This document shows positions 15,974 to 39,063 of a DNA stretch of 50,891 nt, piece after piece (position 1 is the first letter of the stretch; each line of letters opens with the position of its first letter). This stretch comes from Minisyncoccota bacterium. Its GTDB lineage: Bacteria > Patescibacteriota > Minisyncoccia > Phycocordibacterales > GCA-2401445. A program made the translations under genes and the position numbers. Under the pieces are notes generated by a model. The model was not told where the DNA came from. It worked only from the letters and a program-made list of their open reading frames with translations, and did no database searches. The stretch is taken from positions 1-50,891 of the forward strand of contig JBBDJV010000010.1 in NCBI GenBank assembly GCA_040879725.1, read 5' to 3'.

Positions 15974-16146
15974 AAATATAATTAGTTGTAACCATTATTA
16001 TATACATGTGAATGAAAATAGACAGTCTTCACTTCAGACACCTTTTGTTTATAACCTGTTGATAGCGAGTTAATAGAAATAATATTTTGATATGTAAAGA
16101 GTTTTGCGTGTTGCGCAAGAGCAGTATTCCTCTATTAGAGCAAGAG

Positions 16147-17934: not shown

Positions 17935-19213
17935 ATTCTCTATCTTCAACAATCACCCGTTCTTCTTCCGCTAGTTGCAGGCTCCATAAAGAGGAGTCTT
18001 TTTTGTTGATAAAGTAAAGGTAATTTTCATTTTCTGAGAGGAATGGGCGAATAACATCTATTTCAACTCGAGCGAAATCAAAAGGGTTTACTAACTCTTC
18101 GCGTGTAAGTGATTCTCTGTCGATTGACCATAGCGAGTCATTAAATGACATAAGTCCCTTATACCATGCGTCAGGATAGCTGTTTACCGGCATAGAAGTG
18201 TTTGCTCCACAATAAACAACTGTGGAGTCACCTTTCCAAACACATTTCTCTGGCAGTACTGCAAGTGGCACTGCGCGGGTTGCGCCACTTCGAACATCAT
18301 AGAGGTATGTTGATATACGAGTGCTATTTGTTACCGAATAAAGAATAACTTCCTCATCAGGGCTCATAAGTACAGTAAGTCCTGGAAGTGGTCCGAGTAC
18401 GCGAGTAAGACGTGCTGTGTCTGTATCAAGTGTGTATGCGTACCCATCCATAGTATTTTGAGGTTTATTTGCGATAAGGATTGTGTCCTCAGACGGCCAG
18501 CTGGCGGTCCACTCACTAAATGGAGAATCAAATATCTTTGTTTGGCTGCTTCCGTCAGGGTTCATTACAATTCCATCTACTCCACCTGCTGTTGGAGTAA
18601 TAGTGAACATTTGTTCACTGGATGGCGACACTGCCAACTCACGTATTTCTGTTACAAGAGGTTTGGCAGTGAATGACCATGACGGTAGCTCGAGAGGCAC
18701 ATCATCTTCTACTATTTCAGGTGTTTCAAGTATAAGCTTTCCGTAAATTGAGCGTATTCTCTCTGTGTTCTGGTCTACATAACGAAACACAACAGCTGTT
18801 CCATTTTCAACCCAATATGAATCATATATTCCCTCGCTTACCTCTCTATCAAGGCGAGTGAGCGTGCTGTCATTTGTGGTTGTTTGGAAAATATCTCCCA
18901 AACGGCGCTCATTATAACGAATAACAGTACTACTCGCTTCAGCGAAAGCTGTTGCACCAGCGACAGGTTCAGGAGTTATTTGCCGTAGTACCGGTTGCGG
19001 AGTGTTTCTAATTGGGTTTAGTCCACCTGTTCCTGAGTTGTTGCCTGGATTATTTTGTTCTCCTGTTTCATTATCAAAAGGAAAAAGATCAGCGGGTGTC
19101 TCGGTAATTGTTTCTGTTGATGGTTCTTTTAAAATAAAGAACCAGTAAGCTCCACCACCGAGTATTGCCAGGAGTGAAAGGACGAGTATAAAGATAAAAA
19201 ATTTATTGTTCAT
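17924..19213 (-). CDS. Membrane-anchored extracytoplasmic protein (possibly beta-propeller-like), last gene of the T4SS-like operon
   Basis: It has an N-terminal TM helix (FFIFILVLSLLAILGGGAYWFFIL). Its start overlaps the upstream gene in an ATGA arrangement. Confidence 0.65.
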   Translation of the reverse strand: MNNKFFIFILVLSLLAILGGGAYWFFILKEPSTETITETPADLFPFDNETGEQNNPGNNSGTGGLNPIRNTPQPVLRQITPEPVAGATAFAEASSTVIRYNERRLGDIFQTTTNDSTLTRLDREVSEGIYDSYWVENGTAVVFRYVDQNTERIRSIYGKLILETPEIVEDDVPLELPSWSFTAKPLVTEIRELAVSPSSEQMFTITPTAGGVDGIVMNPDGSSQTKIFDSPFSEWTASWPSEDTILIANKPQNTMDGYAYTLDTDTARLTRVLGPLPGLTVLMSPDEEVILYSVTNSTRISTYLYDVRSGATRAVPLAVLPEKCVWKGDSTVVYCGANTSMPVNSYPDAWYKGLMSFNDSLWSIDRESLTREELVNPFDFARVEIDVIRPFLSENENYLYFINKKDSSLWSLQLAEEERVIVEDRESTE

Positions 19214-20109
19214 TGTGCTGAGTTTAGTAATGTATCGTTCTTATAGCGTGAGCAGTTAAAGTCTTTTGCATAGTTTGGTTTGGCGGTATTGCATGATCCT
19301 GGAGAAGAAATTGCATCTAGCTTGTAGTCATTTTCTTCATAGGTAATAGTTAATGGCGGGGTGTAGGTATTGTGGTAGTCTGGTTTTTCTTCGTAATAAA
19401 AAACAATTCCCGTAATTGCTCCTTTTACTATATCTGTTTCAAATACTCGATATCGAGCGCAGTGATACTCTGTAATATCTATTTTTTGATCATTCGGTAA
19501 TGTTTGAACAGGAGTAGCGCACGCTTGTGACCCCGCATCATCCTTATCAAAAAGATACGTATAGTTAGTTCCAGCGTATTGTGCCGTTATGTTCCCTGGC
19601 CAAGAAGGCTCGGTACCTTCATTTTTTCGTATAAAGTGGTAAGCAATGGTCGGACTGACTGCGAGTGAGAGATTTTCTGGTTCGGCGTAAGTAACGACCG
19701 CTACCTCAGCGGGTGTATTCGATGTCCCTACATTTTCAAGAAGGAAATTTGTCTGGAGTATTTGAGGGCTGATGGTATTAACGATCAAGAATGAACCGAG
19801 GGCAAGAAGAAGTCCAAAAATTGCCTTATTAACGGTTTGTTTTCCACTCGACTTTTTAGAGACCGCGTCAGTACTCATGTACTGAATTCCTCCATAGACG
19901 ATCATAATAACCGCCAACGCTATTGCTATACCAATGCCAAATGTGTAGAGGTTTCCAAGATACTCTTCGAGTCCTATTCCTGTTTTATTTATGTCATTTT
20001 CTGAAGTGGTGAGTGGAGCGAGAGGAACGTACTCACTTACGGCAAATACGTCAGTGGTGACTGTTCCAAGAAAGATAAGTATGAATGTCAGTGCGAATAA
20101 GTATTTCAT
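19210..20109 (-). CDS. T4SS pilin-like (TrbC/VirB2-type two-helix module) fused to a Cys-containing C-terminal domain
   Basis: A signal peptide is followed by LGNLYTFGIGIAIALAVIMIVYGGIQYMSTDAVSKKSSGKQTVNKAIFGLLLALGSFLIVNTI. This matches the helix / charged loop / helix pattern of the Pfam T4SS_pilin family. Confidence 0.6.
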   Translation of the reverse strand: MKYLFALTFILIFLGTVTTDVFAVSEYVPLAPLTTSENDINKTGIGLEEYLGNLYTFGIGIAIALAVIMIVYGGIQYMSTDAVSKKSSGKQTVNKAIFGLLLALGSFLIVNTISPQILQTNFLLENVGTSNTPAEVAVVTYAEPENLSLAVSPTIAYHFIRKNEGTEPSWPGNITAQYAGTNYTYLFDKDDAGSQACATPVQTLPNDQKIDITEYHCARYRVFETDIVKGAITGIVFYYEEKPDYHNTYTPPLTITYEENDYKLDAISSPGSCNTAKPNYAKDFNCSRYKNDTLLNSAQ

Positions 20110-20112
20110 TGA

Positions 20113-21153
20113 TTATTGTGGGAAAAATGATTGCTCAGTTTGAGTGTTGCCGTCAAAAGTAAGTGTCATGTTTCTTCGTACGCGTGAAAAGATGTTTGCC
20201 GGGTGTGATACATCCAGTACAAGTGTAGCTCTTCCTGATACTCCTCTTTCTGGACGCAAGGTGATTAAGGATGGATCGCTCGTTTGTGGCGCGACACCTT
20301 CTCCATTCACTGACCAGCGATAAGTTAAGCTGCTGTCTTTTTTATCTTGTGTTGGGAAGAAGTACGGGCTCGCCACAAGGGTAAACTCCGGTGTATTGAA
20401 TGTCGCTCCAGATGAGTAGGCTCTTTCATACTGTGTTTTGAGAAGTGGATCGAAACGATAGAAATATAATTCAGGTGAAGCGGGGGCAAGGACTATTTTC
20501 TTTTCAGCAACAAGGTCTTTATTTCTATCTGAAACCGTGACACCAATAGTCATAGGTCCATTAAGAGTGTCTTCTTCTCTAACAAAGTATACCTGCTTCC
20601 CATATCCAGTAGCCGAAGGAATATTTTTGTTGCCTATTTTCCATTCATAGAAAAGCTCTTCAGGGTTAAGTGGTCTTCCGCTAACCCGAAGGTCTGGGAG
20701 CGCCACCACTTTCACCGGCGCTCCATATGTGTATACCGCTCGTCCTTTGTAGAAAGGTGGAGTGTAGGTAAGCGCCTCCCATACCAAGTCGACATTTGAA
20801 GGAATAAAGGAAAAGTCTTGAGTAAGAAAGTTTCCTTCTACTGTTTGAGCAACCATTTCAACATCATTTCGTGAGCCGACATTTCCTGTGGTGAATTCAA
20901 ATGACCGTAACCCAATACCACTTTGCGTTAGCTCGCCGTTTATGTACCAAGAAATATTTGCGCGGTTTAGGTCTGTGCCGAAGCTTTGAATAGTAATGGT
21001 AACCTGCTCGTTTGCTCCAGGTATTTTAGGAATAACGTCTATTTTAAATGCGTTATTATTTATTCCGAACTGCGCTTCCGCAACAGGCCCAGAAATAAAA
21101 AGCAAAAAAAGTATTATACCTAATCCAAAAATGTGCACGATCTTTTTTTGCAT
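20113..21153 (-). CDS. Secreted protein, function unknown (T4SS-like operon)
   Basis: It has a signal peptide/TM (MQKKIVHIFGLGIILFLLFISGPVAEA). The start is set at ATG 21153, 1 nt after the upstream stop. Confidence 0.65.
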   Translation of the reverse strand: MQKKIVHIFGLGIILFLLFISGPVAEAQFGINNNAFKIDVIPKIPGANEQVTITIQSFGTDLNRANISWYINGELTQSGIGLRSFEFTTGNVGSRNDVEMVAQTVEGNFLTQDFSFIPSNVDLVWEALTYTPPFYKGRAVYTYGAPVKVVALPDLRVSGRPLNPEELFYEWKIGNKNIPSATGYGKQVYFVREEDTLNGPMTIGVTVSDRNKDLVAEKKIVLAPASPELYFYRFDPLLKTQYERAYSSGATFNTPEFTLVASPYFFPTQDKKDSSLTYRWSVNGEGVAPQTSDPSLITLRPERGVSGRATLVLDVSHPANIFSRVRRNMTLTFDGNTQTEQSFFPQ

Positions 21154-21154
21154 A

Positions 21155-21535
21155 TTACTTATTTCCTGCAAGGTGTGGTTTTATTGATACTCCTGTCTTA
21201 TCCTCTAATCTTACCATGGATATGATTAGAATTATCCCAATAGTCCACATCGGAAGCCAGCCGGTAAGTGGAAAAACTTCTAAAAGTGCCGCTCCAGAGG
21301 AAACAAGAAATTTCTTCGGACTCAGTAATCCAACCCCGAGCATAAAGAGCCAAAAGGAGAAAACGCATACCGCGAAAAGTGAAACAAATGACTGAAGGGG
21401 TGCAAGGAGTACTGTTGCAGTAAGTACTACTTCCACCACATCAAATATAAGTGCCACACCTATCAGTAAAACGGCGGTAATGTTTCCTATGCGAGTTTTA
21501 GTTCCCTCATTCTCCATTTTCTTCTTTTTGAGCAA
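21155..21535 (-). CDS. Small polytopic membrane protein (about 4 TM), function unknown
   Basis: The profile is hydrophobic throughout. It overlaps the VirB4-like gene end; an alternative start is ATG 21517. Confidence 0.55.
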   Translation of the reverse strand: MLKKKKMENEGTKTRIGNITAVLLIGVALIFDVVEVVLTATVLLAPLQSFVSLFAVCVFSFWLFMLGVGLLSPKKFLVSSGAALLEVFPLTGWLPMWTIGIILIISMVRLEDKTGVSIKPHLAGNK

Positions 21536-23330
21536 GCTCTTGTTTTGCGCGTTTTATAGCAAGTACTTGTGACGGGTCTGAAGTAATGATCTGATCCTCC
21601 GTGTACGAGGCGATTATTTTAATCGCAACGTGCTTCATACCGGCAAAGAAGATACCTTCTCCCACATCAGATTCCAAAAGTAAGAACTTTTCTTCGTCAG
21701 TGAGGTTAAATGTCTCTTTTACTCTATCTACTGCCGTTGGGGACTGTTTCAAAAGTATTTGAATGGAAGAGTTCGTGATAATAGGAATACCATAAGGTGA
21801 CTTCATAAAGTCCCCTACGTCTTGGGTTATGGTAGCAATACCAAGGTAGTATTTTCTTCCTCGTTTTGCCAAGCCAAAGAGGAACGATGCTGTGTCATCA
21901 CTTTTCATCATCCACCATGCCTCATCGATAACAAGAAGTCGCTTTTTGATATTCTTTCTGATTGTATTCCAAATAAAGTGCGTAATGATATACATTGCCG
22001 CCGGCTTTAGCTCGTCTTCCATGTCACGCACAGAAAATACGACAAACTTTTTATTTATGTCTACGTTTGAAGGTTTGTTTATAAAACCAGACCACGTACC
22101 TTTGGTGTACTTGGTTAGCTTTTGCGCAAGACTTTCCCCTCCTTCCATGCCGGCGAGTACCAGCTCGAAGTCTGACATGAGCGGAGCCTCGATGTTAGTG
22201 AAGTCTGATTCCGGTGTGATGTCTTTGAGCGCATAGGTTTCGGTAATTGCTCGGTCCATGATAGCGTCTTCTTCAGGAGAAAGACCTCCAAGCATGATAC
22301 GGAAAAGTCCCACCAAATGAACTATATTTGAACGGAGAACGTCTTGAGGAGATTCATCTGGCGCGGGAATAGGAAGATCAAACGGGTTAATATGGTGTTC
22401 TGAGGTAAGTGATATGTTGAAGTAGCGACCGCCGATAGTGTCTGCCATGTATTCGTATTCCCTCTCAGGGTCGATGACGATAACTTCAGCATCAAACATA
22501 AGTGTACGAAGTATTTCAAGTTTTGTGGCATAGGATTTTCCTGAACCTGATTTAGCAAACGTAACTGAGTTGTAGTTTTCAAGAGAGAAGCGGTCAAAAA
22601 TAACCAAACTGGAATTATGGCGGTTTACACCGTAGAGAATTCCTCTGTCACTAGTGAGGTCAAACGATACAAAAGGAAAAATACTCGAGAGTGGAGAAGA
22701 GTTTAGTTTTGAGTGCACCATTAGCTGGTCATCTCCGATGGGTATAACACTCTTGAGTCCTTGTTCTTGTTGGAATAGAGCGGGCTTGAGGTACACTAAC
22801 TTCGCTTCCAGTATTGAACGTATTTCTGATTCTGCTTTATCAAGCTCGTGCTCGTTTTCAGCGTAGACGGTAATATACAGACCCACATCAAAAAGCTTTT
22901 CTTGTGCTTGCATAAGGTCATCACGGAGTTGTTCCAAGTCCTGATAGGCGGTATCAAGCATCGGGTCACGAACCAAACCTTTATCCTCTCGCGCGTGGAT
23001 CTGGCTTTGTACCTCGGCTACTTTCTTTTGGAATGTACGAAGTACTTTTGCTGTTTCAACAGGATGAACAAAAATAGAAATATCAAATACTTTATCGAGG
23101 TTGATGATAGGAGAAAACCAGTTTTCAGTTAAGAAGCGGGGGTATGAAATAACAAAAAGTGTTCTACCTACTTTGTCACCCAAATTAAAATCTTTTGGGG
23201 TTATACGAAGCGCGGAGGGCGCAATAATATCTCGCAATTCCAAAATACCCGCTTCATAAATTTCCTGCGGAAGAATAGGTGCAATTTCCGGTGTGTTTTG
23301 TTTAGTTTTTAGAAAATCAAATAGTCCCAT
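21507..23330 (-). CDS. virB4: VirB4/TrbE/TrsE-family type IV secretion ATPase
   Basis: It has Walker A FAKSGSGKSYATK and Walker B RLLVIDEAWWMM. The N-terminal pattern GRTLFVISYPRFLTENWFSPII is typical of VirB4. Confidence 0.85.
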   Translation of the reverse strand: MGLFDFLKTKQNTPEIAPILPQEIYEAGILELRDIIAPSALRITPKDFNLGDKVGRTLFVISYPRFLTENWFSPIINLDKVFDISIFVHPVETAKVLRTFQKKVAEVQSQIHAREDKGLVRDPMLDTAYQDLEQLRDDLMQAQEKLFDVGLYITVYAENEHELDKAESEIRSILEAKLVYLKPALFQQEQGLKSVIPIGDDQLMVHSKLNSSPLSSIFPFVSFDLTSDRGILYGVNRHNSSLVIFDRFSLENYNSVTFAKSGSGKSYATKLEILRTLMFDAEVIVIDPEREYEYMADTIGGRYFNISLTSEHHINPFDLPIPAPDESPQDVLRSNIVHLVGLFRIMLGGLSPEEDAIMDRAITETYALKDITPESDFTNIEAPLMSDFELVLAGMEGGESLAQKLTKYTKGTWSGFINKPSNVDINKKFVVFSVRDMEDELKPAAMYIITHFIWNTIRKNIKKRLLVIDEAWWMMKSDDTASFLFGLAKRGRKYYLGIATITQDVGDFMKSPYGIPIITNSSIQILLKQSPTAVDRVKETFNLTDEEKFLLLESDVGEGIFFAGMKHVAIKIIASYTEDQIITSDPSQVLAIKRAKQELAQKEENGE

Positions 23331-23334
23331 AAAA

Positions 23335-23964
23335 TTATTCTACCTGAATAGGCTTTTCCGATTCGCCTGGATTAAACAGCTTATAAAATACTTCAACAAT
23401 TTCTTCAGTTCCCAATCGCGCAACGCGAATACCTGTACGAATAAGACCTTGTTCTACAATCGATACTCTCTGTTCAAGCTGGCTTCTGTTCTCTTCGAAT
23501 TTTTCTATTTTAGATTCCGCTTGTGCTTGTGCGTTCTTTTTCTTGAAAAGCGAGCTAGAACCTCCAATAGATCCCGGAGAATACGGAATGACAATAATAA
23601 AGCTCTTTGTCATAATACTGGTGTTTTCGGTAAAGTTTTTGATGAAGTTTATATACTCGCGAGTTTGGGTTTTGATAAGCTCTTCCACTTGTTCTTTTTG
23701 GCGAGCTTCGAGAAGCGCTATGTATGGTCTGATATCAAGCTCTCTGGACTGTACGAAAATCTGAATTGAAAAATCAAGCGAGTTAAGGAAGTTTTGGAAC
23801 TGAAGGATAATTCCCTGTTGCTCATCTTCTGACTTAAGCGCAAAGTTAAGAGACGATACAAGTACAAGTGCTCGCATTGAGTTGTCCTCAAGCACAACCA
23901 CTCCATCACGAACTTCCTTTATAGGTACGAAGTCTTGAGTTGGTTTACTTTTGTTGTTGGCCAT
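23335..23964 (-). CDS. VirB4-associated protein resembling the extreme N-terminal region of Gram-positive VirB4 proteins
   Basis: The segment FVPIKEVRDGVVVLEDNSMRALVLVSSLNFALKSEDEQ fits this. It ends 4 nt before the VirB4-like ATG, in a different frame. Confidence 0.55.
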   Translation of the reverse strand: MANNKSKPTQDFVPIKEVRDGVVVLEDNSMRALVLVSSLNFALKSEDEQQGIILQFQNFLNSLDFSIQIFVQSRELDIRPYIALLEARQKEQVEELIKTQTREYINFIKNFTENTSIMTKSFIIVIPYSPGSIGGSSSLFKKKNAQAQAESKIEKFEENRSQLEQRVSIVEQGLIRTGIRVARLGTEEIVEVFYKLFNPGESEKPIQVE

Positions 23965-24379
23965 AATGATTTTTTGATTCGTGGATATCTAAGCTCCATG
24001 CCAAATCTTTTAGTTTACTGTCTGAGAGTCTTGGTACATACGTTTCCGCTCCTGTGTCAGAAATATCTTTTTTCTCCGTATGATTTACTTTTTTGGGTAT
24101 TTTTTTCCAAATATAAAGTCGTGCGCGAGTGTAGAAATAAAATGCAGATTCAAGCATGTTTATAAAGGGTCGCTTTGACTGATCTTTATAAAATGCCAGT
24201 GCAATGGAAAGGACAACTACTGGAGTCAGAAGTACAAATGCAAGAATTTTTGGACTAATAAGCGAAAAGATGGTAAATGCCAAACCCGCTCCTCCTGCCA
24301 AATAAATGAACTGCTTCAGGGTTAATGGCCCGAAAATCTTATCTTCCACCTCAATAAACTGGGGCACTTGAAACCTCAT
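23945..24379 (-). CDS. PrgI-family (VirB3-analog) membrane protein, first gene of the T4SS-like operon
   Basis: The sequence MRFQVPQFIEVEDKIFGPLTLKQFIYLAGGAGLAF is followed by a second TM helix. Confidence 0.6.
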   Translation of the reverse strand: MRFQVPQFIEVEDKIFGPLTLKQFIYLAGGAGLAFTIFSLISPKILAFVLLTPVVVLSIALAFYKDQSKRPFINMLESAFYFYTRARLYIWKKIPKKVNHTEKKDISDTGAETYVPRLSDSKLKDLAWSLDIHESKNHYGQQQK

Positions 24380-25699: not shown

Positions 25700-25730
25700 A
25701 AAAAACTCCCCTCTCTAAGGGAGTTTTTTA
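25700..25730. terminator. Bidirectional terminator between the M23 peptidase gene and comM
   Basis: The sequence is AAAAAACTCCC-CTCTCTA-AGGGAGTTTTTT. Confidence 0.75.
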
Positions 25731-27239
25731 TATATCCAAAAACGTCGGTCGATACTGCAAGGCTTCCAAAATATGTTCAGATGATACCGTGGGACTGTTT
25801 TCAAGGTCTGCGATTGTTCGAGCGAGTTTTTGCACACGGTGGTATGAGCGAGCTGAGAGTTTTAGTTTCTTTCCAGCTTCCATGAGGAGGTTTTTTGTTT
25901 CTGTATCAAGTGGAATAAATAATTCCACTTCTTTTGCCCCGATACGACCATTAGATATTTGTTTTTTATAACGCGCGTGTTGTTTATTTCGAGCATTAGT
26001 AACACGTGTGCGGATAGCTTTACTTGTTTCTTGTTCTGACTTTGTTCCTAGTACCGAGTATTCTATATGAGGTACTTCAACCCACATATCTATTCTATCG
26101 ATAATAGGTCCTGATATTTTTCTTTTAAAGCGATTGTGTGTTAGTTCATCCATAACCGCCGTTCCGTCTCGATTAAGCATGGAGGGTGGGTTGAGAGCGG
26201 CGACAAGAATAAAGTCTGCCGGAAAACGAGCAGAGCCACGTGCGCGTGAAATAGAAACTACTTTATCTTCGAGTGGTTCACGAAGTGCATCAATCACTCG
26301 ACGGTCAAATTCTGGAAATTCATCCAGAAATAACACTCCTCTGTGAGCGAGAGTTACCTCTCCTGGTTTTGGATTACTTCCTCCTCCAACAATCGCAACA
26401 TAAGAAGCAGTGTGGTGTGGTGAACGAAACGGTCGGAGTGCATACTCTTGAGAATTAAATAAACCGGCAATAGAATGAATGGAGGCTGTCTCAAGTAACT
26501 CTTCATCGGTAAACGGAGGAAGAATGTGCGAAAAAGCACGCGCGAGCATTGTCTTTCCAGTTCCTGGAGGTCCGAAAAGTGCAATGTTATGCTCTCCGGC
26601 AGCTGCTATTTCTAAAGCTCGTTTCGCTCGCGCATTCCCTTTTATATCTTTCATGTCAATAATAGTCTCAGGATATTCAAGGGACGCTCTTTCGTTTTGT
26701 TTATTTGGAGTAAGCACCACTTCTTCTTTCAGGTGCGCTACTATTTCCTTGAGAGAAGAAACAGGTATACAGTGCAGGTGCGGAAGTATGTGAGCTTCGT
26801 GCTCATTCTCTTTGGGTATGAAGACGGTTGAGAAGTTTTTCTGTTGCGCTTCAATGAGTAATGGGAGGACTCCTGTTACTCCTCTGATTTTCCCATCGAG
26901 AGAAAGCTCTCCTATAAAAAGGTTTTTGTCTTTTTCCTTCGGCAGTATTTCGCTCGCTTGCAGGTACGCAATAGCCATGGCGAGATCAAAATGAGTCCCC
27001 TCCTTTTTTATGTGCGCGGGAGCCAGGGAAATAACAACCTTTTGATTTTTAGATTTAGGTGAAGGAAAATCGGAATTTTTGAGTGCAGAAGAAATTCTGT
27101 CGCGTGCTTCTTCTACTGCTTTATCGGGAAGTCCGACAATAGAAAATGCATAGAGCCCTTTTGTAATATCAACTTCAACATCAACAATGTGAGGTTTCAG
27201 TAGAAAAGTTTGTGCACTGGTTACTCGTGCGAATGACAT
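25728..27239 (-). CDS. comM: ComM/YifB Mg-chelatase-like AAA+ ATPase
   Basis: It has Walker A FGPPGTGKTM and Walker B VLFLDEFPEF. The start is set at ATG 27239 (MSFARVTS), 6 nt after TATAGT (27246-27251). Confidence 0.9.
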   Translation of the reverse strand: MSFARVTSAQTFLLKPHIVDVEVDITKGLYAFSIVGLPDKAVEEARDRISSALKNSDFPSPKSKNQKVVISLAPAHIKKEGTHFDLAMAIAYLQASEILPKEKDKNLFIGELSLDGKIRGVTGVLPLLIEAQQKNFSTVFIPKENEHEAHILPHLHCIPVSSLKEIVAHLKEEVVLTPNKQNERASLEYPETIIDMKDIKGNARAKRALEIAAAGEHNIALFGPPGTGKTMLARAFSHILPPFTDEELLETASIHSIAGLFNSQEYALRPFRSPHHTASYVAIVGGGSNPKPGEVTLAHRGVLFLDEFPEFDRRVIDALREPLEDKVVSISRARGSARFPADFILVAALNPPSMLNRDGTAVMDELTHNRFKRKISGPIIDRIDMWVEVPHIEYSVLGTKSEQETSKAIRTRVTNARNKQHARYKKQISNGRIGAKEVELFIPLDTETKNLLMEAGKKLKLSARSYHRVQKLARTIADLENSPTVSSEHILEALQYRPTFLDI

Positions 27240-27254
27240 ACTTCTACTATACAC

Positions 27255-27285
27255 CAAAAAATAAACACATTCAGAGAATGTGTTT
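27255..27285 (-). terminator. Rho-independent terminator after the dksA-like gene
   Basis: On the minus strand, AAACACATT-CTCTG-AATGTGTTT is followed by ATTTTTTGG. Confidence 0.6.
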
Positions 27286-32418: not shown

Positions 32419-33333
32419 ATGAATGAATTAAAACGCTACAAGCAAGAATTTTTAGAATACGTAGAGATAGAAAAAGGCAGAAGTCTGAAGACTGTCGCAA
32501 ACTATGATCGCTATTTAATGCGTTTTATTGAACACACAAAGCTAACTCACCCCAAAGACATAACTGATGAGGTTATTCGTGAGTTTAGGCTTTGGTTAAA
32601 CCGACAGCCAGCACCAAGTAGTAATGGTGGCGGAGGAATGCTGAAGAAGAAAACTCAGAATTACTACCTTATTGCACTTCGTTCATTCCTTAAATACATG
32701 CTTAAACGTGGGGTTACTTCCCTTCCTCCTGAAAGAATCGAGCTTGCGAAAGTTTCAGAACGTTCTCTTGATCTAATAACTACCGATGAGCTCGACCGCT
32801 TACTAATAGCGCCTAATGAAAGCGATATAAAGTCGTTGCGAGACAAAGCACTTCTTGAACTTCTGTTTTCAACAGGGTTGCGAGTTTCAGAACTATGTTC
32901 CTTGAACCGGGATTTGGATTTGAATCGAGACGAACTTTCTGTTCGCGGGAAAGGTGACAAGATTCGAGTGGTTTTTATTTCTGAAGGAGCAAAGAATGCA
33001 CTAAAGGCGTATTTGAAAAAACGAGAGGACATGAGCGACGCACTGTTTGTTGGACTATCGAAAATTCGCGCTGGTATTCCTGAACGCATAACTCCACGTT
33101 CGGTAGAAAGGATAGTGAAACAATATGCAATTAAAGCGGGTATTTCAAAAAAGGTAACGCCGCATATCATTCGACACTCTTTTGCTACTGACTTACTTTC
33201 AAATGGTGCTGATTTGCGTAGTGTGCAGGCATTGCTTGGTCATGCGCATATTGGAACAACGCAGATATATACTCACGTTACCGATAAGCACTTGCGGGAT
33301 ATACATAAGAATTTTCACAATAAACGCAAATAG
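32419..33333 (+). CDS. XerC/XerD-family tyrosine recombinase
   Basis: It has a core-binding N-domain, catalytic GLRVSEL (Arg), HIIRHSFAT (H-x-x-R) and TTQIYTHV (Tyr). Confidence 0.85.
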   Translation: MNELKRYKQEFLEYVEIEKGRSLKTVANYDRYLMRFIEHTKLTHPKDITDEVIREFRLWLNRQPAPSSNGGGGMLKKKTQNYYLIALRSFLKYMLKRGVTSLPPERIELAKVSERSLDLITTDELDRLLIAPNESDIKSLRDKALLELLFSTGLRVSELCSLNRDLDLNRDELSVRGKGDKIRVVFISEGAKNALKAYLKKREDMSDALFVGLSKIRAGIPERITPRSVERIVKQYAIKAGISKKVTPHIIRHSFATDLLSNGADLRSVQALLGHAHIGTTQIYTHVTDKHLRDIHKNFHNKRK

Positions 33334-35109: not shown

Positions 35110-36600
35110 CTATTTTTTAACACTATATTTCTGAAGAATTTTTTTAGTTTCAGCAGAATCTTCAATTTTCTGACGCTCCTTTCCTTTTGTGCCTAGTTCC
35201 TTTAACTCCTTTTCTGGGAGGCTGTAAAGCTCGATAGCTCTATTTTCTAAATAATCACTAGTATTTCTTTTTGGATCATCAAGCACTTCTTCTAAGAGTG
35301 CGTGCAGTATTAAACCAATATGGGAGCCCGGTTTGGACTGTGTTAGCTCTATTAGTCGATTTCCATCAATAGCAAGCATCCCTACGGTAAGTGGGTCCCG
35401 AAGTGCTTCTTCTATCATTGCGTGGTATTTTCTAAGCCTATACGGGTCTTCCTTTGGTCTTCCGGTGCCTATACGGTCACAAATACGAACATTCATAAGA
35501 TCCCAAATGTTTTCTTTTCCAACATTCGCAATCATTCTACGGACCGCAGAAAGAGTAATTTGGTCAGTATCAGAGAAAAACATGTGCCAACGAACGAGAG
35601 TGGTTACTTTTTGAATAATATGTTTAGGATACTTCAGGCGCTCTAAGATTTTTTTTGCTTTACGTGCTCCTACTACTTCATGTCCGAAAAAGGTCCATTT
35701 CTTATCCCCTGCTCCCTTTCTACGTGTTTCAGGCTTTGCAATGTCGTGAAATAGAGCGGAAAGTCTAATGTGCAGCTCCCACCCTTTATCTGCAGAGTGC
35801 TGAAGTGAGCGTAGTAAGTGCTCCCACACGTCGTAGGTATGGATACCTCCCTGCTCTACCCCTTTTGCTTCCAAAAGCTCCGGCAGGAAACGCTCAAGGA
35901 CCGAAACTTTTGCCAAAAGTTCAATTCCATACATGGGGTTTTGTGAAAGAAGTATCCGAGAAAACTCATCTCGGATACGCTCAACCGCTATTGAATCTAG
36001 GTTTTGAGCCACATTTTGTATTTCGCGTTCAGTCTCGGATTCAATGGTGAAGTTATGTTCAACCGCAAGGCGAATAGCGCGCATTATACGGAGTGCGTCC
36101 TCTGTGAATCGCTCATGTGGCTCTCCTACGGTACGAACCAGACCTTCTCGTAAATCAGCGATGCCATTGTAGTAATCAAAAACAAACTTATTCTCTACAT
36201 CGTAGGCGAGTGCGTTAAAGGTGAAATCTCTTCGTTTTAGATCATCTTGTAGCGTCTCACTGAAGGTTACGCTGTCTGGGTGTCTATTGTTGCTATATTC
36301 CGCTTCAGAGCGGTAGGTAGTGACCTCAACTGTTTCAAGTGTAACATCGTCTACTCCTTCAGTAACAACTCCTACTGTACCAAATTCGTTTTCGTAAAAT
36401 GTATGCGGAAAAAGATTTACTACTGTTTCAGGACGTGCATTTGTGGTGATGTCCCAATCTTTTGGTTTCTTATTTAAAAACAAATCTCTGACACAGCCAC
36501 CTACTAAATATGCCTCAAAACCTGCGTCTTTTAGGGTTTTTGTAATCACCACCACTGTTTCCGGAATGGTAAACTCTATTCTGATACTAGTGTTATTCAC
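35110..36600 (-). CDS. cca: CCA-adding enzyme / tRNA nucleotidyltransferase with an HD domain
   Basis: It has GGCVRDLFL, DWDITT and the HD motif LFHDIAKP. The start is set at GTG 36600, 6 nt after TACAAT (36607-36612). The longer track ORF runs through tRNA-Arg on the opposite strand and has no internal Met. Confidence 0.85.
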   Translation of the reverse strand: MNNTSIRIEFTIPETVVVITKTLKDAGFEAYLVGGCVRDLFLNKKPKDWDITTNARPETVVNLFPHTFYENEFGTVGVVTEGVDDVTLETVEVTTYRSEAEYSNNRHPDSVTFSETLQDDLKRRDFTFNALAYDVENKFVFDYYNGIADLREGLVRTVGEPHERFTEDALRIMRAIRLAVEHNFTIESETEREIQNVAQNLDSIAVERIRDEFSRILLSQNPMYGIELLAKVSVLERFLPELLEAKGVEQGGIHTYDVWEHLLRSLQHSADKGWELHIRLSALFHDIAKPETRRKGAGDKKWTFFGHEVVGARKAKKILERLKYPKHIIQKVTTLVRWHMFFSDTDQITLSAVRRMIANVGKENIWDLMNVRICDRIGTGRPKEDPYRLRKYHAMIEEALRDPLTVGMLAIDGNRLIELTQSKPGSHIGLILHALLEEVLDDPKRNTSDYLENRAIELYSLPEKELKELGTKGKERQKIEDSAETKKILQKYSVKK

Positions 36601-36620
36601 GGAGTAATTGTAGTATACCT

Positions 36621-36649
36621 TTGGCAAAATGACCAATATGTCGTATGAT
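36621..36649 (+). promoter_or_regulatory. Promoter TTGGCA-17-TATGAT for tRNA-Arg
   Basis: The hexamers lie at 36621-36626 and 36644-36649. The tRNA 5' end is at 36660. Confidence 0.55.
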
Positions 36650-36659
36650 GTTCTCACTT

Positions 36660-36731
36660 GCCCCTGTGGTGAAATGGATATCACAACGGTCTTCGGAACC
36701 GTTATTCTGGGTTCGAATCCTGGCGGGGGCA
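36660..36731 (+). tRNA. tRNA-Arg(UCG), no encoded CCA
   Basis: A manual cloverleaf fold gives the acceptor GCCCCTG/CGGGGGC, D arm GTGA/TCAC and anticodon stem ACGGT/ACCGT with loop CTTCGGA. The T arm is CTGGG-TTCGAAT-CCTGG and the discriminator is A. Confidence 0.85.
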
Positions 36732-36782
36732 CAATCGTAAAGTCATTTTTTTGTTACCGAGGAAGCGTGGGGACGCTTCTGT

Positions 36783-36887
36783 CCAGGATTCGAAGCCCGA
36801 TTGAGCATTTTATCGAGCCTGAAAGGCGAAGAAAAAATCCAATTGGGGTACTGCTCCTGTAAGGAGAGAATCCTGGCGGGGGCACAA
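36783..36887 (+). repeat. tRNA-linked module E1: inverted T-arm copy, core hairpin, direct copy of the tRNA-Arg 3' end
   Basis: CCAGGATTCGAA (36783-36794) is the reverse complement of 36712-36723. The core hairpin lies at 36796-36847. The stretch 36868-36887 is an exact copy of 36715-36734. Confidence 0.8.
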
Positions 36888-36923
36888 AATTTCTAAAATA
36901 TAGAGAAATAGCTACATATTTTC

Positions 36924-37099
36924 ATTTCTTACGATATATAGTAAGAAATCAATTTAATACAAGGGGCCCCTTGTATTGGATTGATTAGCTACATAGGAAT
37001 ATTTTTCTAACCTGTTTTCAGAACGAGGTTAAACCTCGTTCTGAAAAAGCTATATATAGCAACGTAATTTCATATCAAGGTTTAACCTTGATATGAAAT
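36924..37099. repeat. Field of five perfect palindromes/hairpins in 176 bp
   Basis: The five are: 36924-36949 (9-bp arms), 36956-36977 (22-bp perfect palindrome), 37015-37047 (16+1+16), 37049-37060 (GCTATATATAGC) and 37067-37099 (16+1+16). Confidence 0.85.
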
Positions 37100-37203
37100 A
37101 TCACAATCGTAGTTACTGATTCTTGTATTACCCGCCAAGAACATCTACCTACCCTACCTCACACTTGTCTGCCCTGTCTAACCTACCTTATTTAGTAGGA
37201 ACT

Positions 37204-37384
37204 CTGGCGGTGCCAGAGGTATAGTGGCGGGAGAATCGGTCACGAGTTACTAAGTATAATTCTTCGCTACGCTCGAATTCTACTAAGTACTCTCGACCCT
37301 GCCTGCCGGCAGGCAGGCCCAGCTCGGGACTTTTGCCTTGCGTAAGAACGCAAACAAAAGTATCCCTGCGCTTTTCGATTCTCC
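37204..37384 (-). repeat. tRNA-Gly-linked module: inverted T-arm copy, GC palindrome, GA-loop hairpin, degenerate 3'-end copy
   Basis: On the minus strand, GGAGAATCGAA lies at 37374-37384 and CCTGCCTGCCGGCAGGCAGG at 37298-37317. The hairpin at 37248-37289 has the loop GAGCGTAGCGAA. CGATTCTCCC lies at 37229-37238 and GCACCGCCA at 37204-37212. Confidence 0.65.
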
Positions 37385-37426
37385 ACGCAAGCAAAGCAGT
37401 TTGCTTGCTCTACTCCGCACCGCAAA

Positions 37427-37464
37427 CAAAATTACCGTATTCTTAATCAGAATACGGTAATTTT
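37427..37464 (-). terminator. Terminator after tRNA-Gly
   Basis: ATTACCGTATTC-TTAATCA-GAATACGGTAAT is flanked by an A-run and a T-run. Confidence 0.7.
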
Positions 37465-37469
37465 GGCGG

Positions 37470-37540
37470 TGCGGGTAGGGAGAATCGAACTCCCGACTCA
37501 TCCTTGGCAAGGATGTGTTCTACCACTAAACCATACCCGC
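37470..37540 (-). tRNA. tRNA-Gly(GCC)
   Basis: A manual fold gives the acceptor GCGGGTA/TACCCGC and anticodon stem CATCC/GGATG with loop TTGCCAA. The T arm is GGGAG-TTCGATT-CTCCC. A TATAAT lies 9 nt upstream (37550-37555). Confidence 0.9.
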
Positions 37541-37685
37541 AGTGAAAGCATTATACCCTATCGTAAATTAAAATAAAGAGGATACTGCCTGCTATGTCTG
37601 TTACTCTCATGTTACGTGAGAAACAACTTTTTTGTTTAAATACACAGTGTTTTCCTACAAATATACCCAGAAAAATGTTCAAAAC

Positions 37686-37714
37686 TGTGGATAACTTAGG
37701 GGATATGTGTATAA
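37686..37714. promoter_or_regulatory. Pair of DnaA boxes 20 bp apart, outside oriC
   Basis: TGTGGATAA (37686-37694) is a perfect match and TGTGTATAA (37706-37714) has one mismatch. Both have the same orientation. Confidence 0.4.
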
Positions 37715-37858
37715 AAGACAATAATAGACTTGTCTTTTTATACCACGACTTTGACAAAATGTCCTTATTTAGAGCCACACATTTGACAAAAAGGCAAATA
37801 TATATGTTTCACATGAAACGTAGGTTACATGTGTAACACATCTAGGTAGAATAAGGTA

Positions 37859-38278
37859 ATGAATGAGGATAAAGGTAACTCAAAAAATACAAAAGAAACT
37901 GACAAAGCGAGGGTTGGAAGAATTGGAGAAGATATTGCTGAGATTTTTCTCGTAAAGAAAGGCTACACATTAGATGATAGAAATTTTAGAAAGAAGTGGG
38001 GCGAAATAGATTTGGTTACACATGAAAACAAAATACTGGTTTTTGTTGAAGTAAAAACGGAGAAGGTAAGTGTTACACATGAAAACAAAGGCTATAGGAT
38101 AGAGGAAAATATTCATAAAGATAAACTCAAAAGGCTTACAAGAGCTATTTATAGCTATTTGAAAGAAAAAAACGTTTCTGATGAAACTGAATGGAGGTTG
38201 GATGCGGTTATTGTTAGACTAGATACAGAAAGTAAGAAGGCTAGGGTGTCTCATATTAAAAATATACTAGCGGAGTAG
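37859..38278 (+). CDS. yraN: YraN-family (UPF0102) endonuclease-like protein with an internal insertion
   Basis: The motifs GEDIAEIFLVKKGY, GEIDLV and LVFVEVKT are present. TAGAAT (37847-37852) lies 6 nt before the ATG. An 18-nt exact direct repeat occurs inside the gene (38015-38032 and 38072-38089). Confidence 0.8.
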   Translation: MNEDKGNSKNTKETDKARVGRIGEDIAEIFLVKKGYTLDDRNFRKKWGEIDLVTHENKILVFVEVKTEKVSVTHENKGYRIEENIHKDKLKRLTRAIYSYLKEKNVSDETEWRLDAVIVRLDTESKKARVSHIKNILAE

Positions 38279-38357
38279 CTTAAAGGACATTTGTCTTTTA
38301 TAAAAGACTCTAGCAATTTGTATTTAATATGCTAGACTAGCGTAATCCAAATAGTAT

Positions 38358-38430
38358 CGGGGCGTAGTGTAACGGCTAACATGCTTGATTTGGGATCAAG
38401 TGACTCCGGGTTCGAATCCCGGCGCCCCGA
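38358..38430 (+). tRNA. tRNA-Pro(UGG), no encoded CCA
   Basis: A manual fold gives the acceptor CGGGGCG/CGCCCCG and anticodon stem CTTGA/TCAAG with loop TTTGGGA. The T arm is CCGGG-TTCGAAT-CCCGG. TGCTAGACT lies at 38330-38338. Confidence 0.9.
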
Positions 38431-38451
38431 CAATGTTGTAGTTGTTCTGTT

Positions 38452-38490
38452 CTGCCTACCGCCTGCCTGCCGGTAGGCAGGGCAGGCAGG
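38452..38490 (+). repeat. GC-rich interleaved palindromes (A-B-A'-B')
   Basis: CTGCCTACC (38452-38460) pairs with GGTAGGCAG (38472-38480). CCTGCCTGCC (38462-38471) pairs with GGCAGGCAGG (38481-38490). Confidence 0.8.
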
Positions 38491-38577
38491 CCGATTGAGA
38501 TAGATTATGAGCAAAGCGAAATAATCTATCCAATTGGGGTACTGCTCCTGTAAGGTTCAAGTCCTCTCTCGCGCACA
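38491..38577 (+). repeat. tRNA-linked module E2: core hairpin plus the 3' part of a tRNA-like sequence absent from the window
   Basis: The core lies at 38491-38537. It is followed by GGTACTGCTCCTGTAAGG and then TTCAAGTCCTCTCTCGCGCA. Confidence 0.75.
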
Positions 38578-38640
38578 AAGATTTGAGCAAAGCGAAAAAC
38601 TGTGCGCGAGGCACAGCTTTTTTCTTAAAAAGCGTCGTGC

Positions 38641-38742
38641 GGACTTGAAGCCCGATTGAGATAAATTATGAGCAAAGCGAAATAATTTATCCAATTGGGG
38701 TACTGCTCCTGTAAGGAGAGAATCCCGGCGCCCCGACAATGT
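38641..38742 (+). repeat. tRNA-linked module E3: inverted copy of the E2 T-loop segment, core hairpin, direct copy of the tRNA-Pro 3' end
   Basis: GGACTTGAA (38641-38649) is complementary to 38556-38564. The core lies at 38651-38699. The stretch 38720-38742 is an exact copy of 38414-38436. Confidence 0.8.
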
Positions 38743-39063
38743 AAGGTTCGAGAGTTTGGTGTGTATATGTAAATCAATTTTGCATTACTTGCTCTAAATA
38801 AGCACCAAAGTAATATATCGTGATATTTTCGGTAGGTTCATCTATTTTTACTTTCAGGTGATAAAAGCTGTTTCAAATGAAACAAAGTAGGGAAGTGAGG
38901 AGTTACACATGTAACAATATGCACTTATCCCAGTAAACTAATAGTAGTAATACGCACACTTTAAAGGCTGTAGTAAACGCAAAAACTTGAAAGAGAAGCA
39001 TTATATTGTTTTACTGTAGATACATAACTATAAGCATTTAATTATTTAATACACTTAGTACAC

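Follow-up and report, generated by a model that had tools for sequence, protein, structure and literature searches.

Five GA-capped hairpins are tips of variable arms in tRNA-linked non-coding modules of a Minisyncoccota bacterium

A direct repeat that runs from the T-loop to the 3' end of a tRNA gene is the classical signature of integration by tyrosine integrases of the T-loop class. The islands and prophages of this class insert into the 3' part of a tRNA gene, bring a replacement 3' end, leave a direct repeat and build up in tandem. The direct repeat and the tandem build-up also apply to the modules described here, for which insertion with a replacement 3' end is likewise proposed; these modules lie in a 50,891-nt stretch of DNA from a Minisyncoccota bacterium (contig JBBDJV010000010.1, hereafter the window). 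Unlike such islands, however, the modules are devoid of an integrase, measure 100-300 nt, serve tRNAs of at least 13 specificities with one core family and carry a tRNA-matched antisense arm as well as a covarying fold at the junction. The direct repeats that mark a T-loop att site are present (20 identical nt at the Arg locus and 23 at the Pro locus, partial at Gly, and many loci elsewhere). An att site with the integrase encoded in the insert and a single target tRNA was rejected, given modules without ORFs and at least 13 specificities.

In integron attC sites (bottom strand) and in attP(+) of CTX phage, the latter a XerCD substrate, an imperfect hairpin made of inverted repeats rebuilds the target duplex, extrahelical parts are present and one strand is exchanged. 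The modules are alike in geometry only; in place of attI or dif they target a tRNA T-arm, and their core is a conserved three-way junction. REP/BIME, Correia/NEMIS and Rickettsia palindromic elements and the PATEs of IS200/IS605 share with the modules that they are short, non-coding, structured, multi-copy, polymorphic and often near terminators, but they have neither the strict T-loop position nor target-matched antisense arms nor a target duplication of ~20 nt. The modules do belong among the short, multi-copy, polymorphic non-coding repeats of MITE- or REP-like kind. A MITE-like element in the strict sense, with terminal inverted repeats and a fixed target duplication, does not describe them, because the inverted repeat is formed between element and tRNA and the duplication consists of ~20 nt of tRNA.

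tRNA-like handles (the tmRNA domain, viral 3' TLS, the Mauriceville retroplasmid) may resemble the modules in stacking acceptor and T-stem without an anticodon arm. They differ in that the T-loop of the module is replaced by a 70-nt domain and that pairing follows the gene or precursor including its trailer, not the CCA end. In the Neurospora Mauriceville retroplasmid, tRNA sequences mediate integration next to a tRNA gene; in contrast, no reverse transcriptase was found for the modules. Finally, a TIGR array repeats a 36-nt unit, each containing two 9-nt spacers, next to a Tas protein with a Nop domain, and the IS110 bridge RNA is a two-loop RNA encoded beside the IS110 recombinase (PMC12045711). 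Both were rejected as relatives: the module units measure 100-190 nt without 36-nt periodicity, and no Nop or IS110 domains were present in the 30 large window ORFs scanned.

Modules behind three tRNA genes

A reading of the DNA from sequence only had claimed five rod hairpins with a common GAGC-N(3-5)-GCGAA loop, and all five loops are present: GAGCCTGAAAGGCGAA at 36815-36830 (plus strand) in the Arg module, GAGCGTAGCGAA at 37263-37274 (minus strand) in the Gly module and GAGCAAAGCGAA at 38509-38520, 38585-38596 and 38670-38681 (plus strand). Each of them lies in a module of 100-300 nt directly 3' of a tRNA gene (Arg, Gly or Pro) and forms the tip of a variable arm of this larger tRNA-linked non-coding element. 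Read on the tRNA-sense strand, the tRNA, which a terminator-like trailer hairpin may follow, comes first; next there is often an anti-acceptor strand, and then come a hairpin P0, the antisense arm, the core and a copy of the tRNA 3' end. The antisense arm is complementary to tRNA positions 54-65, the acceptor 3' strand is often covered by antisense as well, and the direct 3' copy starts at T-loop position 57. Type-1 cores consist of the P2 arm, GUACU and P3 with a UGUAA loop, GUACU and UGUAA being invariant and the three helices covarying. Type-2 cores end in GGUCGNGAG..CUYGUGACC, and further core types exist; types 1 and 2 both adjoin the tRNA copy at position 57. The sequence-only reading was silent on the link to three tRNA genes and on the repeats of tRNA 3' ends.

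The Arg locus carries a type-1 module on the plus strand. The first repeat copy, X1-Arg (GAATCCTGGCGGGGGCACAA, 36715-36734), starts at T-loop position 57 of tRNA-Arg(TCG) (36660-36732; ARAGORN and Rfam) and overshoots its ARAGORN-assigned 3' end by 2 nt. The P0 hairpin GGAAGCGU-GGGG-ACGCUUCU (36761-36780, from the fold), which has variable equivalents in most related loci, stands just 5' of the antisense arm CCAGGATTC plus GAA(G) (36783-36795). This arm, seen as an inverted repeat and by P1 covariation, is the 5' strand of P1 and is complementary to tRNA-Arg positions 54-65, the T-loop and T-stem 3' strand (9/9 pairs). It is followed by the P2 arm, made up of CCCGATTG/CAATTGGG with one A bulged out, a rod rich in A and U and the capped tip at 36815-36830 (36796-36847; fold and covariation), and by the 3' half of the core, the junction GTACT and P3 GCTCC-TGTAA-GGAGA (36848-36867), a 20-mer found identically elsewhere. 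X2-Arg (36868-36887) repeats X1-Arg, and with it the tRNA-Arg 3' part from position 57 on, without a single difference and forms the 3' strand of P1.

On the minus strand, tRNA-Gly(GCC) (37468-37540; ARAGORN and Rfam), whose 3' part is the repeat copy X1-Gly (37486-37464), is followed by a type-2 module. Its 5' half (37373-37465), supported by the inverted repeat and the antisense-arm match, comprises a terminator-like trailer hairpin (37465-37427), the anti-acceptor GCGGTGCGGAGTAG (37423-37410), P0 (37408-37387) and the antisense arm TGGAGAATC plus GAA(A) (37385-37373). The type-2 core (37238-37372), assigned by fold and by other loci, contains a GC hairpin, CCTGCCTGCCGGCAGGCAGG (37317-37298), and a terminal rod, GGTCGAGAG...CTCGTGACC (37298-37238), which carries the cap at 37274-37263. 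This core is also found behind other tRNAs in L001, L005, L008, L022, L023, L030 and L031. X2-Gly (37205-37237) is a decayed tRNA-Gly 3' copy and only a partial direct repeat, in which a 15-nt insert separates GATTCTCCC from GCACCGCCA.

The plus-strand Pro locus holds two type-1 modules, E2 and E3, and a Leu-type unit. tRNA-Pro(TGG) (38358-38431; ARAGORN and Rfam) and its repeat copy X1-Pro, GAATCCCGGCGCCCCGACAATGT (38414-38436), are followed by one or more GC-rich hairpins recognised as repeats, kin to the Gly GC hairpin, in place of an E2 antisense arm (38452-38490). E2 (38491-38558; fold, and 56.8 bits with the covariance model) is made up of P2 (38491-38538) with the third capped loop, GTACT (38539-38543) and a weakened P3, GCTCC-TGTAA-GGTTC (38544-38558). 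At 38554-38577 there follows a 3' part that stems from another tRNA, one of Leu-like type (positions 52-76, GGTTCAAGTCCTCTCTCGCGCACA), recognised by its likeness to tRNA-Leu 3' ends in L004 and L012. Its acceptor 3' strand CTCGCGCACA folds with the antisense TGTGCGCGAG into a hairpin bearing the fourth loop (38568-38611), and a P0-like hairpin (38612-38640, from the fold) and a partial antisense arm, GGACTT plus GAAG (38641-38650), come next; this arm matches the Leu-like T-arm, not tRNA-Pro. E3 (38651-38719; fold, 85.3 bits) comprises P2 (38651-38699) with the fifth loop, GTACT (38700-38704) and P3 (38705-38719). X2-Pro (38720-38742), 23 nt identical to X1-Pro, is overlapped by TGTAAGGTTCGAG (38740-38752), a repeat and remnant of another type-1 3' end.

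Antisense arms follow their tRNA

An antisense arm to positions 54-65 was found in all modules examined. A matched 9-nt arm followed by GAA lay within 250 nt downstream of 32 of 58 tRNAs, compared with 0/58 upstream and 2/58 on the opposite strand, and the orientation of the module was always that of the tRNA. The arms pair better with the tRNA than with the downstream copy (8.73/9 vs 7.19/9); behind a tRNA-Cys with the T-loop TGCGAAT, the arm reads ATTCGCA. The host tRNAs of the type-1 core represent at least 13 amino-acid specificities; one further host has the anticodon TTA.

These data bear on the possibility that the modules are decayed ends of ordinary integrase islands or prophages, each an island arm beside attR left over once the island itself was deleted. 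The direct repeats, which begin at T-loop position 57 and end a few nt beyond the tRNA, the occasional enclosed ORFs and the apparent replacement of the tRNA 3' end all speak for such remnants. A protein-specified att site, however, does not predict one core behind at least 13 specificities, each with a matched antisense arm. Moreover, no integrase adjoins the modules, no match was found in viral contigs, the units are 100-190 nt long and tandem, and covariation and G-U bias (see below) show selection on a single-strand fold. We consider this origin highly improbable.

A matched 9-nt anti-acceptor (at least 8/9 pairs) occurred in 11 of 30 modules, compared with 13% when the tRNAs were mismatched. 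P0 falls on the 65/66 boundary; it is flanked exactly by one strand antisense to 66-73 and another antisense to 54-65 (e.g. L009, L017, L006). These features would suit a tRNA-mimicking non-coding RNA, an acceptor/T-stem top half with one side arm that acts as decoy, sensor or handle for tRNA-binding proteins. P0 would take the place at which a tRNA sends out its D and anticodon arms, an expanded domain would replace the T-loop, excision would proceed by RNase Z and RNase P, perhaps with addition of CCA, and the GA cap would bind protein. The constant orientation, the excess of G-U over A-C pairs and the 5-nt P3 loop UGUAA, which resembles a T-loop motif in opening with U (position 1) and closing with A (position 5), point the same way. 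Against a mimic, the module is dispensable and variable, a tRNA of one kind carrying none, one or several modules of differing core types across related genomes, and the downstream tRNA copy that it needs is often decayed or carries indels. In 41% of modules a terminator-like hairpin separates tRNA and module with no room for a promoter, and the Arg and Pro modules of the window are devoid of an anti-acceptor strand. Neither ARAGORN nor the Rfam tRNA model reported anything beyond the three genuine tRNAs, and no T-loop, D-arm or anticodon arm was detected by them in the modules. A mimic seems doubtful to us.

Covariation, fold and the GA cap

About 105 type-1 copies were collected from Patescibacteria genomes and metagenomes. 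The type-1 core 20-mer gave 30 Patescibacteria genome loci (plus one chance match) and 50 metagenome loci, and as these loci were gathered by an exact 20-mer, the apparent conservation of the core is inflated; a covariance model gave 49, then 56 copies, typically 30-100 nt downstream of a same-strand tRNA. Covariation across the collected homologues was strong. In P3, GCUCC/GGAGC is exchanged for GAAAC/GUUUC, GACCC/GGGUC or GAACC/GGUUC with a constant UGUAA loop and GUACU; P1 and P2 also covary, as does P3 in diverged copies. In an independent metagenome set 87% of cells pair, compared with 71% when shuffled and at most 57% when slid. Both partners of the pair vary in 29 of 30 cases. Selection on pairing, which the sequence-only reading had deduced from a few stems, is thus borne out by covariation of the outer stem (P2) and the rods across ~100 homologues. 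G-U pairs exceed A-C pairs (73 vs 39) and the fold therefore belongs to the tRNA-sense strand.

In the single-strand fold, P1 and P3 pair with one continuous T-arm-like strand (GGNNC|GAAUCCnnn). The T-loop 56|57 junction thereby comes to lie at a three-way junction with P2, the previously described rod, as its third arm. This architecture could belong to a small self-cleaving or self-ligating ribozyme with P1 and P3 as arms, GAA(G), P2 and GUACU as core and the T-loop 56|57 bond as its site. Such a ribozyme could free tRNA 3' fragments or drive RNA-level recombination or circularisation of the ~130-nt unit, the capped P2 tip serving as tertiary contact. [quoted passage not shown] However, CUGANGA is absent, the junction strands run in reverse order to the hammerhead (GAAG, P2, GUACU, P3, 0-1 nt, P1), and the core GAA is plain antisense to U54-C56. 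Beyond the arms and the position of the junction, type-2 and other cores have nothing of this core in common with type 1. In Rfam 15 only the three tRNAs of the window reached the gathering score, and at E up to 10 on 36400-39000 the rest were chance miRNA and snoRNA matches with no ribozyme among them. A ribozyme is, in our view, distinctly unlikely.

With regard to the loop itself, four exact GAGC-N(3-5)-GCGAA matches occur in the window against 0.77 +/- 0.81 expected (0/100 shuffles reached four), an enrichment above chance; they are confined to 37263-38681, within 1.4 kb, and the Arg copy falls outside the pattern because of a 7-nt insert. Every copy folds as a hairpin with a mini-stem of 2-4 bp between GA and GAA (z-scores -2.8 to -5.1). 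The arms of E2 (GATAGATTAT/ATAATCTATC) and E3 (GATAAATTAT/ATAATTTATC) and the outer stem CCGATTG/CAATTGG match their earlier description; as E2 and E3 are near-identical duplicates (96%), their single compensatory change is weak evidence alone.

A stand-alone family of rod hairpins, defined by this loop and forming a docking module of its own, gains from the finding that a single 14-mer, TGAGCAAAGCGAAA, tops three distinct helices of the window as well as a type-2 rod of another genome (L005), and from the conservation of GA and GA(A) on mini-stems of varied sequence and length (2 to >7 bp). On the other hand, the capped hairpin was seen only within tRNA-linked modules, and the excess under a loose structural definition (80 matches vs 27-51 in five shuffles, mean ~39) is mostly module-borne. 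About half of the modules do without the cap, which is present in 44 of 93 distinct type-1 modules (47%). Its host helices are of three kinds (type-1 P2 arm; type-2 terminal rod; hairpin of tRNA 3' copy and antisense copy) and the defining conserved parts, namely the antisense arm, GUACU, P3 with its UGUAA loop and the copied tRNA 3' end, lie outside the loop. The self-contained family is not supported and appears very unlikely to us.

The proposal of tandem sheared G-A pairs fits the cap. The cap (stem-GA-[mini-stem/loop]-GA(A)-stem, with 5'-GA-3' opposite 5'-GA-3') recurs on differing mini-stems and agrees with a tandem G-A internal loop as in the hammerhead stem II junction and the non-canonical stem of K-turns and K-loops. 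It is an optional peripheral motif and probably a docking site for a protein or another RNA part. A hammerhead was rejected for the cap, whose preceding bases AUUAU pair with the 3' strand and which has neither a stem I branch nor a CUGA U-turn. A canonical K-turn was rejected too: once the mini-stem forms, the G-A pairs have no 3-nt bulge next to them, and the extra A is 3' of GA. With the mini-stem open, the geometry may be K-loop-like.

Turnover and candidate mobility

Module content differs between related genomes. The tRNA cluster Cys-Leu-Lys-Leu is common to L004 and L008; at Cys, Leu(taa) and Lys, however, the two are unlike in presence and type of the module, and wherever this is so the 3' part of the tRNA is unlike as well. 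In L075, which is syntenic with the window, tRNA-Gly is without a module and Arg and Pro carry other cores. Tandem arrays were found in L018, L019, L009 and L030, chimeras occur, and many metagenome contigs end at a module. The modules seem to come and go as mobile DNA does.

We tentatively propose, at a probability of roughly 0.45, that the modules are non-autonomous mobile elements which integrate at the T-loop junction of tRNA genes and act as a folded single strand. The element would enter at the 56|57 junction and bring a replacement 3' end, so that the gene stays intact; the original 3' end would be pushed downstream and decay there. By analogy with integron attC and CTX-phage attP, the form recognised and exchanged would be the folded single strand, either ssDNA or RNA. 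Several observations weigh against mobility of this kind. A move between different tRNAs would yield chimeric tRNAs unless arm and 3' copy were retargeted, for which no mechanism is at hand, and DNA uptake followed by homologous recombination could also produce gain and loss, with no need for a dedicated transposition process. The trailer hairpins argue against co-transcription, yet they do not establish ssDNA, and P0 at the acceptor/T-stem boundary fits a tRNA-mimic RNA equally well. No recombinase, reverse transcriptase or HUH gene was found inside or consistently beside the modules, and no free or circular form was seen. The only such gene in the window encodes a Xer-like integrase and is 3.3 kb away. 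In L010 and L011 one ORF is enclosed between tRNA and module, and these cargo ORFs are without integrase domains.

A bolder version, which we think unlikely, is a new class of nucleic-acid-guided mobile elements, in which a small structured RNA or ssDNA with antisense arms to T-arm positions 52-56 and 54-65 fixes the T-loop 56|57 site at the conserved three-way junction and directs or catalyses strand exchange with tRNA genes or transcripts. Such an element would copy itself behind whichever tRNA its arms match and would rewrite tRNA 3' ends; it would amount to a programmable, protein-light homing device widespread in CPR bacteria (Patescibacteria).

No match to the module family was found in Rfam 15 or in the literature searched. 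If the proposed mobile elements are real, many CPR tRNA genes would be shadowed by uncatalogued structured non-coding elements with antisense and second sense copies of tRNA 3' ends, and one or more strongly covarying families would be absent from Rfam. They would account for CPR assembly breaks next to tRNA genes and would represent a process that swaps tRNA 3' ends between strains, based on a compact scaffold in which base-pairing arms, not protein, appear to set the target. The GA-capped hairpin would then be a tractable handle to the partner protein.

The window's tRNA genes and their capped hairpins

The sequence-only reading had described five hairpins capped by a conserved loop, and inspection of the window sequence located all five loops where they had been claimed. 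We asked how often the loop arises by chance: the pattern GAGC-N(3-5)-GCGAA has four matches in the window (50.9 kb), where 0.77 would be expected, and in 100 shuffles that number was never reached. The Arg loop, with its 7-nt insert, is a fifth copy apart from these exact matches. Upon folding, all five formed hairpins (z-scores -2.8 to -5.1) in which a mini-stem of 2-4 bp between 5'-GA and GAA-3' sits atop a longer stem. The compensatory change reported between E2 and E3, two elements behind tRNA-Pro, is a real G-C to A-T double change; these copies are 96% identical duplicates and the single change, taken alone, is weak evidence.

Each capped hairpin lies within 150-310 nt directly downstream of a tRNA gene and on the same strand as that tRNA. 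The genes concerned, tRNA-Arg(TCG) (36660-36732, +), tRNA-Gly(GCC) (37468-37540, -) and tRNA-Pro(TGG) (38358-38431, +), are the only tRNA genes of the window and all fall in the hairpin region; in none of the three is the discriminator base immediately followed by an encoded 3' CCA. The downstream stretches close with a second copy of the 3' part of their own tRNA, from the T-loop onward: GAATCCTGGCGGGGGCACAA occurs at 36715 and 36868 for Arg and GAATCCCGGCGCCCCGACAATGT at 38414 and 38720 for Pro, while the Gly copy is decayed. Upstream of the outer stem, a 9-nt stretch is the complement of the T-loop plus T-stem 3' strand of the same tRNA (CCAGGATTC at 36783-36791 for Arg, an inverted repeat), and in three window copies the 20-mer GGGGTACTGCTCCTGTAAGG comes after the outer stem. 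We refer to the whole non-coding element as a module.

A family of tRNA-linked modules

The 20-mer GGGGTACTGCTCCTGTAAGG was found at 30 loci in Patescibacteria genomes, plus one chance match, and on 50 metagenome contigs; a scan of viral contigs gave no match. The taxa include Saccharibacteria, Paceibacterota, Kaiserbacteria and Zambryskibacteria among others, and one bin labelled Omnitrophica. The latter (L011, MHFM01000068.1) holds a type-1 module with a variant P2 arm on a contig binned outside Patescibacteria, the result of either horizontal transfer or a binning error. At nearly all loci a tRNA gene stands 30-100 nt upstream of the module on the same strand. Host tRNAs are those for Arg, Gly, Pro, Leu, Ser, Lys, Tyr, Trp, Val, Glu, Thr, Cys and His, and one tRNA with a TTA anticodon. 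This gene (L062, 1992-2064, -), called 'Stop' by ARAGORN and followed by a type-1 module, may encode a suppressor tRNA, in line with the stop-codon reassignment of some CPR lineages. Run over the first and second sets, a covariance model seeded with 28 type-1 copies retrieved 49 and 56 copies respectively, diverged ones among them. Type-1 copies stand in tandem at several loci (L018, L019, L009), and at L030 two core types alternate, every copy closing with the same tRNA 3' piece. Rfam 15 yielded tRNAs and noise only, both at the gathering score and at E values up to 10. Searches of the open-access literature and bioRxiv, sequence strings included, found no description of the modules, which may have been described elsewhere; one candidate, PMC8040213, was not a match.

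Of the 58 tRNAs in the loci and the window, 32 have a matched 9-mer followed by GAA in the next 250 nt downstream, none has one upstream and two have one on the opposite strand. The GAA is antisense to U54-U55-C56. A tRNA-Cys with the T-loop UUCAAUU is followed by the arm AAUUGAA, and the T-loop UGCGAAU by AUUCGCA; the 5' arm is thus the reverse complement and not a sense copy of these non-palindromic T-loops, which rules out a degenerate tRNA copy. The exception is one sense copy in the Pro module of L075. Pairing amounts to 8.73 of 9 positions with the genuine tRNA versus 7.19 of 9 with the downstream copy, in which small indels are frequent. Judged by these pairings, it is the real tRNA to which the arm is antisense. 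The P0 hairpin lies exactly at the acceptor/T-stem boundary and is preceded in about one third of the modules by an extra strand antisense to the acceptor 3' strand; a terminator-like hairpin separates the tRNA from these strands in 41% of modules.

Comparative data support three helices in the type-1 module. P1 joins the variable antisense arm to the tRNA copy downstream. P2 (CCCGAUUG/CAAUYGGG, containing a bulged A and running on into a variable A/U-rich rod) is the hairpin with outer stem of the sequence-only reading, and its pairing is borne out by covariation across copies. The nearly invariant GUACU joins it to P3, a stem of 5 bp whose UGUAA loop is invariant. Of the cells in the metagenome set, which was collected independently, 87% pair, versus 71% in shuffled alignments and at most 57% with partners slid, figures biased toward structure by the fitting of the alignment to the covariance model; 29 of its 30 pairs changed on both sides. 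Diverged copies show swaps in P2 and in P3 (GCUCC/GGAGC, GAAAC/GUUUC, GACCC/GGGUC, GAACC/GGUUC). Since G-U pairs outnumber A-C mismatches by 73 to 39, the fold is assigned to the tRNA-sense strand. P1 is absent from the minimum free energy fold of the whole Arg module and rests on the comparative data.

The P3 3' strand runs straight into the P1 3' strand, and the joint resembles a T-arm (GGNNC|GAAUCCnnn versus GGUUC|GAAUCCnnn). The two arms would thus hold one continuous strand, with 56|57, the T-loop junction between tRNA positions 56 and 57, at the three-way junction. The modules might be an RNA mimicking the top half of tRNA, which we consider unlikely; that they form a two-armed ribozyme acting at 56|57 seems to us quite improbable. 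As a hammerhead, the type-1 junction misfits in strand order and core sequences and lacks CUGANGA (cf. PMC10085705). TIGR-Tas and the IS110 bridge RNA (PMC12045711) match neither in the size of the units nor in the protein partner.

The cap, GA-[mini-stem]-GA(A), tips 44 of 93 distinct type-1 P2 arms, the remainder ending in simple loops; its mini-stem is 2 to more than 7 bp long and differs in sequence. The 14-mer TGAGCAAAGCGAAA also tips a type-2 rod in another genome (L005). Because it occurs on only some arms and on rods of both types, the cap is an optional, portable tip. The stand-alone docking hairpin proposed from the sequence is in our view very unlikely. The tip is compatible with tandem sheared G-A pairs. 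It fails the definition of a K-turn, having no 3-nt bulge, and for a hammerhead its strand order and core sequences are wrong and CUGANGA is absent (cf. permuted hammerheads, PMC10085705). A loose structural definition of the cap gave 80 hits versus 27-51 in five shuffles, too high a background for use.

The Gly module belongs to another core family, type 2. It closes with GGUCGNGAG-rod-CUYGUGACC, and the tRNA copy, from position 57, stands immediately behind. Other tRNAs are followed by this family as well (L001, L005, L008, L022, L023, L030, L031), and in its terminal helix G-U pairs are exchanged for A-U. Further cores follow Cys in L004 and Arg and Pro in L075. All core types have in common an antisense arm, a tRNA 3' copy and the position of the junction.

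Surroundings of the modules in the window

The window is otherwise the ordinary chromosome of a reduced bacterium, with dnaA/dnaN, polA, PNPase, UvrD, a CCA-adding enzyme and a Xer-like integrase (32419-33333). A Pfam scan of its 30 large ORFs returned housekeeping and type IV secretion-like genes and no reverse transcriptase, HUH or IS transposase. That the modules are remnants of conventional integrase att sites appears highly improbable to us. The type IV secretion-like genes occupy 17924-24379 (TraG/VirB4-like, 21507-23330; PrgI-like, 23945-24379) amid ORFs without Pfam match; a type II/IV secretion ATPase lies at 4512-6206 and ComM at 25728-27257. The dnaN and dnaA genes (13287-15973) adjoin the lowest-GC stretch of the window (14000-16000, 34%), probably the chromosomal replication origin. 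Relative to the presumed direction of replication, tRNA-Gly and its module run against and Arg and Pro with it; module orientation therefore tracks the tRNA and not replication. The mechanical ORF of the CCA-adding enzyme (PolyA_pol, HD; 35110-36732, -) overruns tRNA-Arg on the opposite strand, and the actual start probably lies further downstream.

The palindromic motif GTTWCAYRTGWAAC occurs seven times in the window with at most one mismatch versus 0.19 expected (36332-36345, 37806-37837, 38015-38028, 38072-38085, 38870-38883, 38902-38915). It clusters around and inside the YraN (UPF0102) ORF at 37859-38278, where two in-frame copies encode VTHEN; in L075, the YraN gene at the syntenic position is flanked and interrupted by similar motifs of the GTTTCACCTGAAAC type. 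Four near-perfect palindromes rich in A/T follow one another at 36921-37099, in the gap between the convergent Arg and Gly modules; they could serve as bidirectional terminators or form a further repeat family.

Gain, loss and exchange of modules

The window Pro locus is a chimera. In E2 the arm is missing, and the 3' part of a Leu-like tRNA comes next. Behind it stand the antisense strand of this Leu-like segment, a P0 hairpin and an arm matched to Leu, and then E3, which closes with the Pro copy. The fourth capped hairpin is the stem formed by the Leu-like acceptor strand and its antisense. A GC-rich hairpin, CCTGCCTGCCGG(C/T)AGGCAGG, is common to the Gly type-2 module (37297-37318) and the Pro locus (38451-38482) and oriented alike with respect to the tRNA, which argues for mosaic recombination between modules.

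The related Paceibacterota genomes L004 and L008 have the tRNA cluster Cys-Leu-Lys-Leu and its flanks in common. Only L004 carries a 136-nt module behind Cys, only L008 about 200 nt of modules behind Leu(taa), and the tRNA-Lys modules differ. Where modules differ, so does the tRNA 3' part from the T-stem onward, while the 5' two-thirds are identical. In the orthologous tRNA-Leu(taa) genes (L004, 2072-2160; L008, 6024-6113), the 5' 60 nt are identical and six differences, paired T-stem changes included, fall in the T-arm and acceptor 3' strand, coinciding with module presence or absence. L075 is syntenic with the window across Arg, Gly, YraN and Pro; there, tRNA-Gly is followed by a plain terminator instead of a module, and Arg and Pro carry other cores. 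Old downstream tRNA copies are decayed. Many metagenome contigs stop at a module, as expected of a repeat.

Single ORFs of no assigned function are occasionally enclosed by modules. In L010 (5072-5827, 251 aa) and L011 (3608-3925, -, 105 aa) an ORF separates a tRNA from its matched type-1 module, placed some 0.9 kb behind the tRNA, which indicates that modules can bracket cargo; neither ORF had a match in Pfam, NCBIfam or PADLOC.

These comparisons show that a tRNA can do without its module and that modules undergo gain, loss, exchange and stacking; a mobile element is therefore favoured. With a probability of roughly 45%, we tentatively read the modules as non-autonomous mobile elements that bring their own tRNA 3' end. 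Neither an enzyme nor a free form nor a transcript of such an element was observed. Integration would take place at the T-loop junction of the tRNA gene, the element supplying the replacement 3' end. The active form may be a folded single strand, for which integron attC and CTX-phage attP are precedents.
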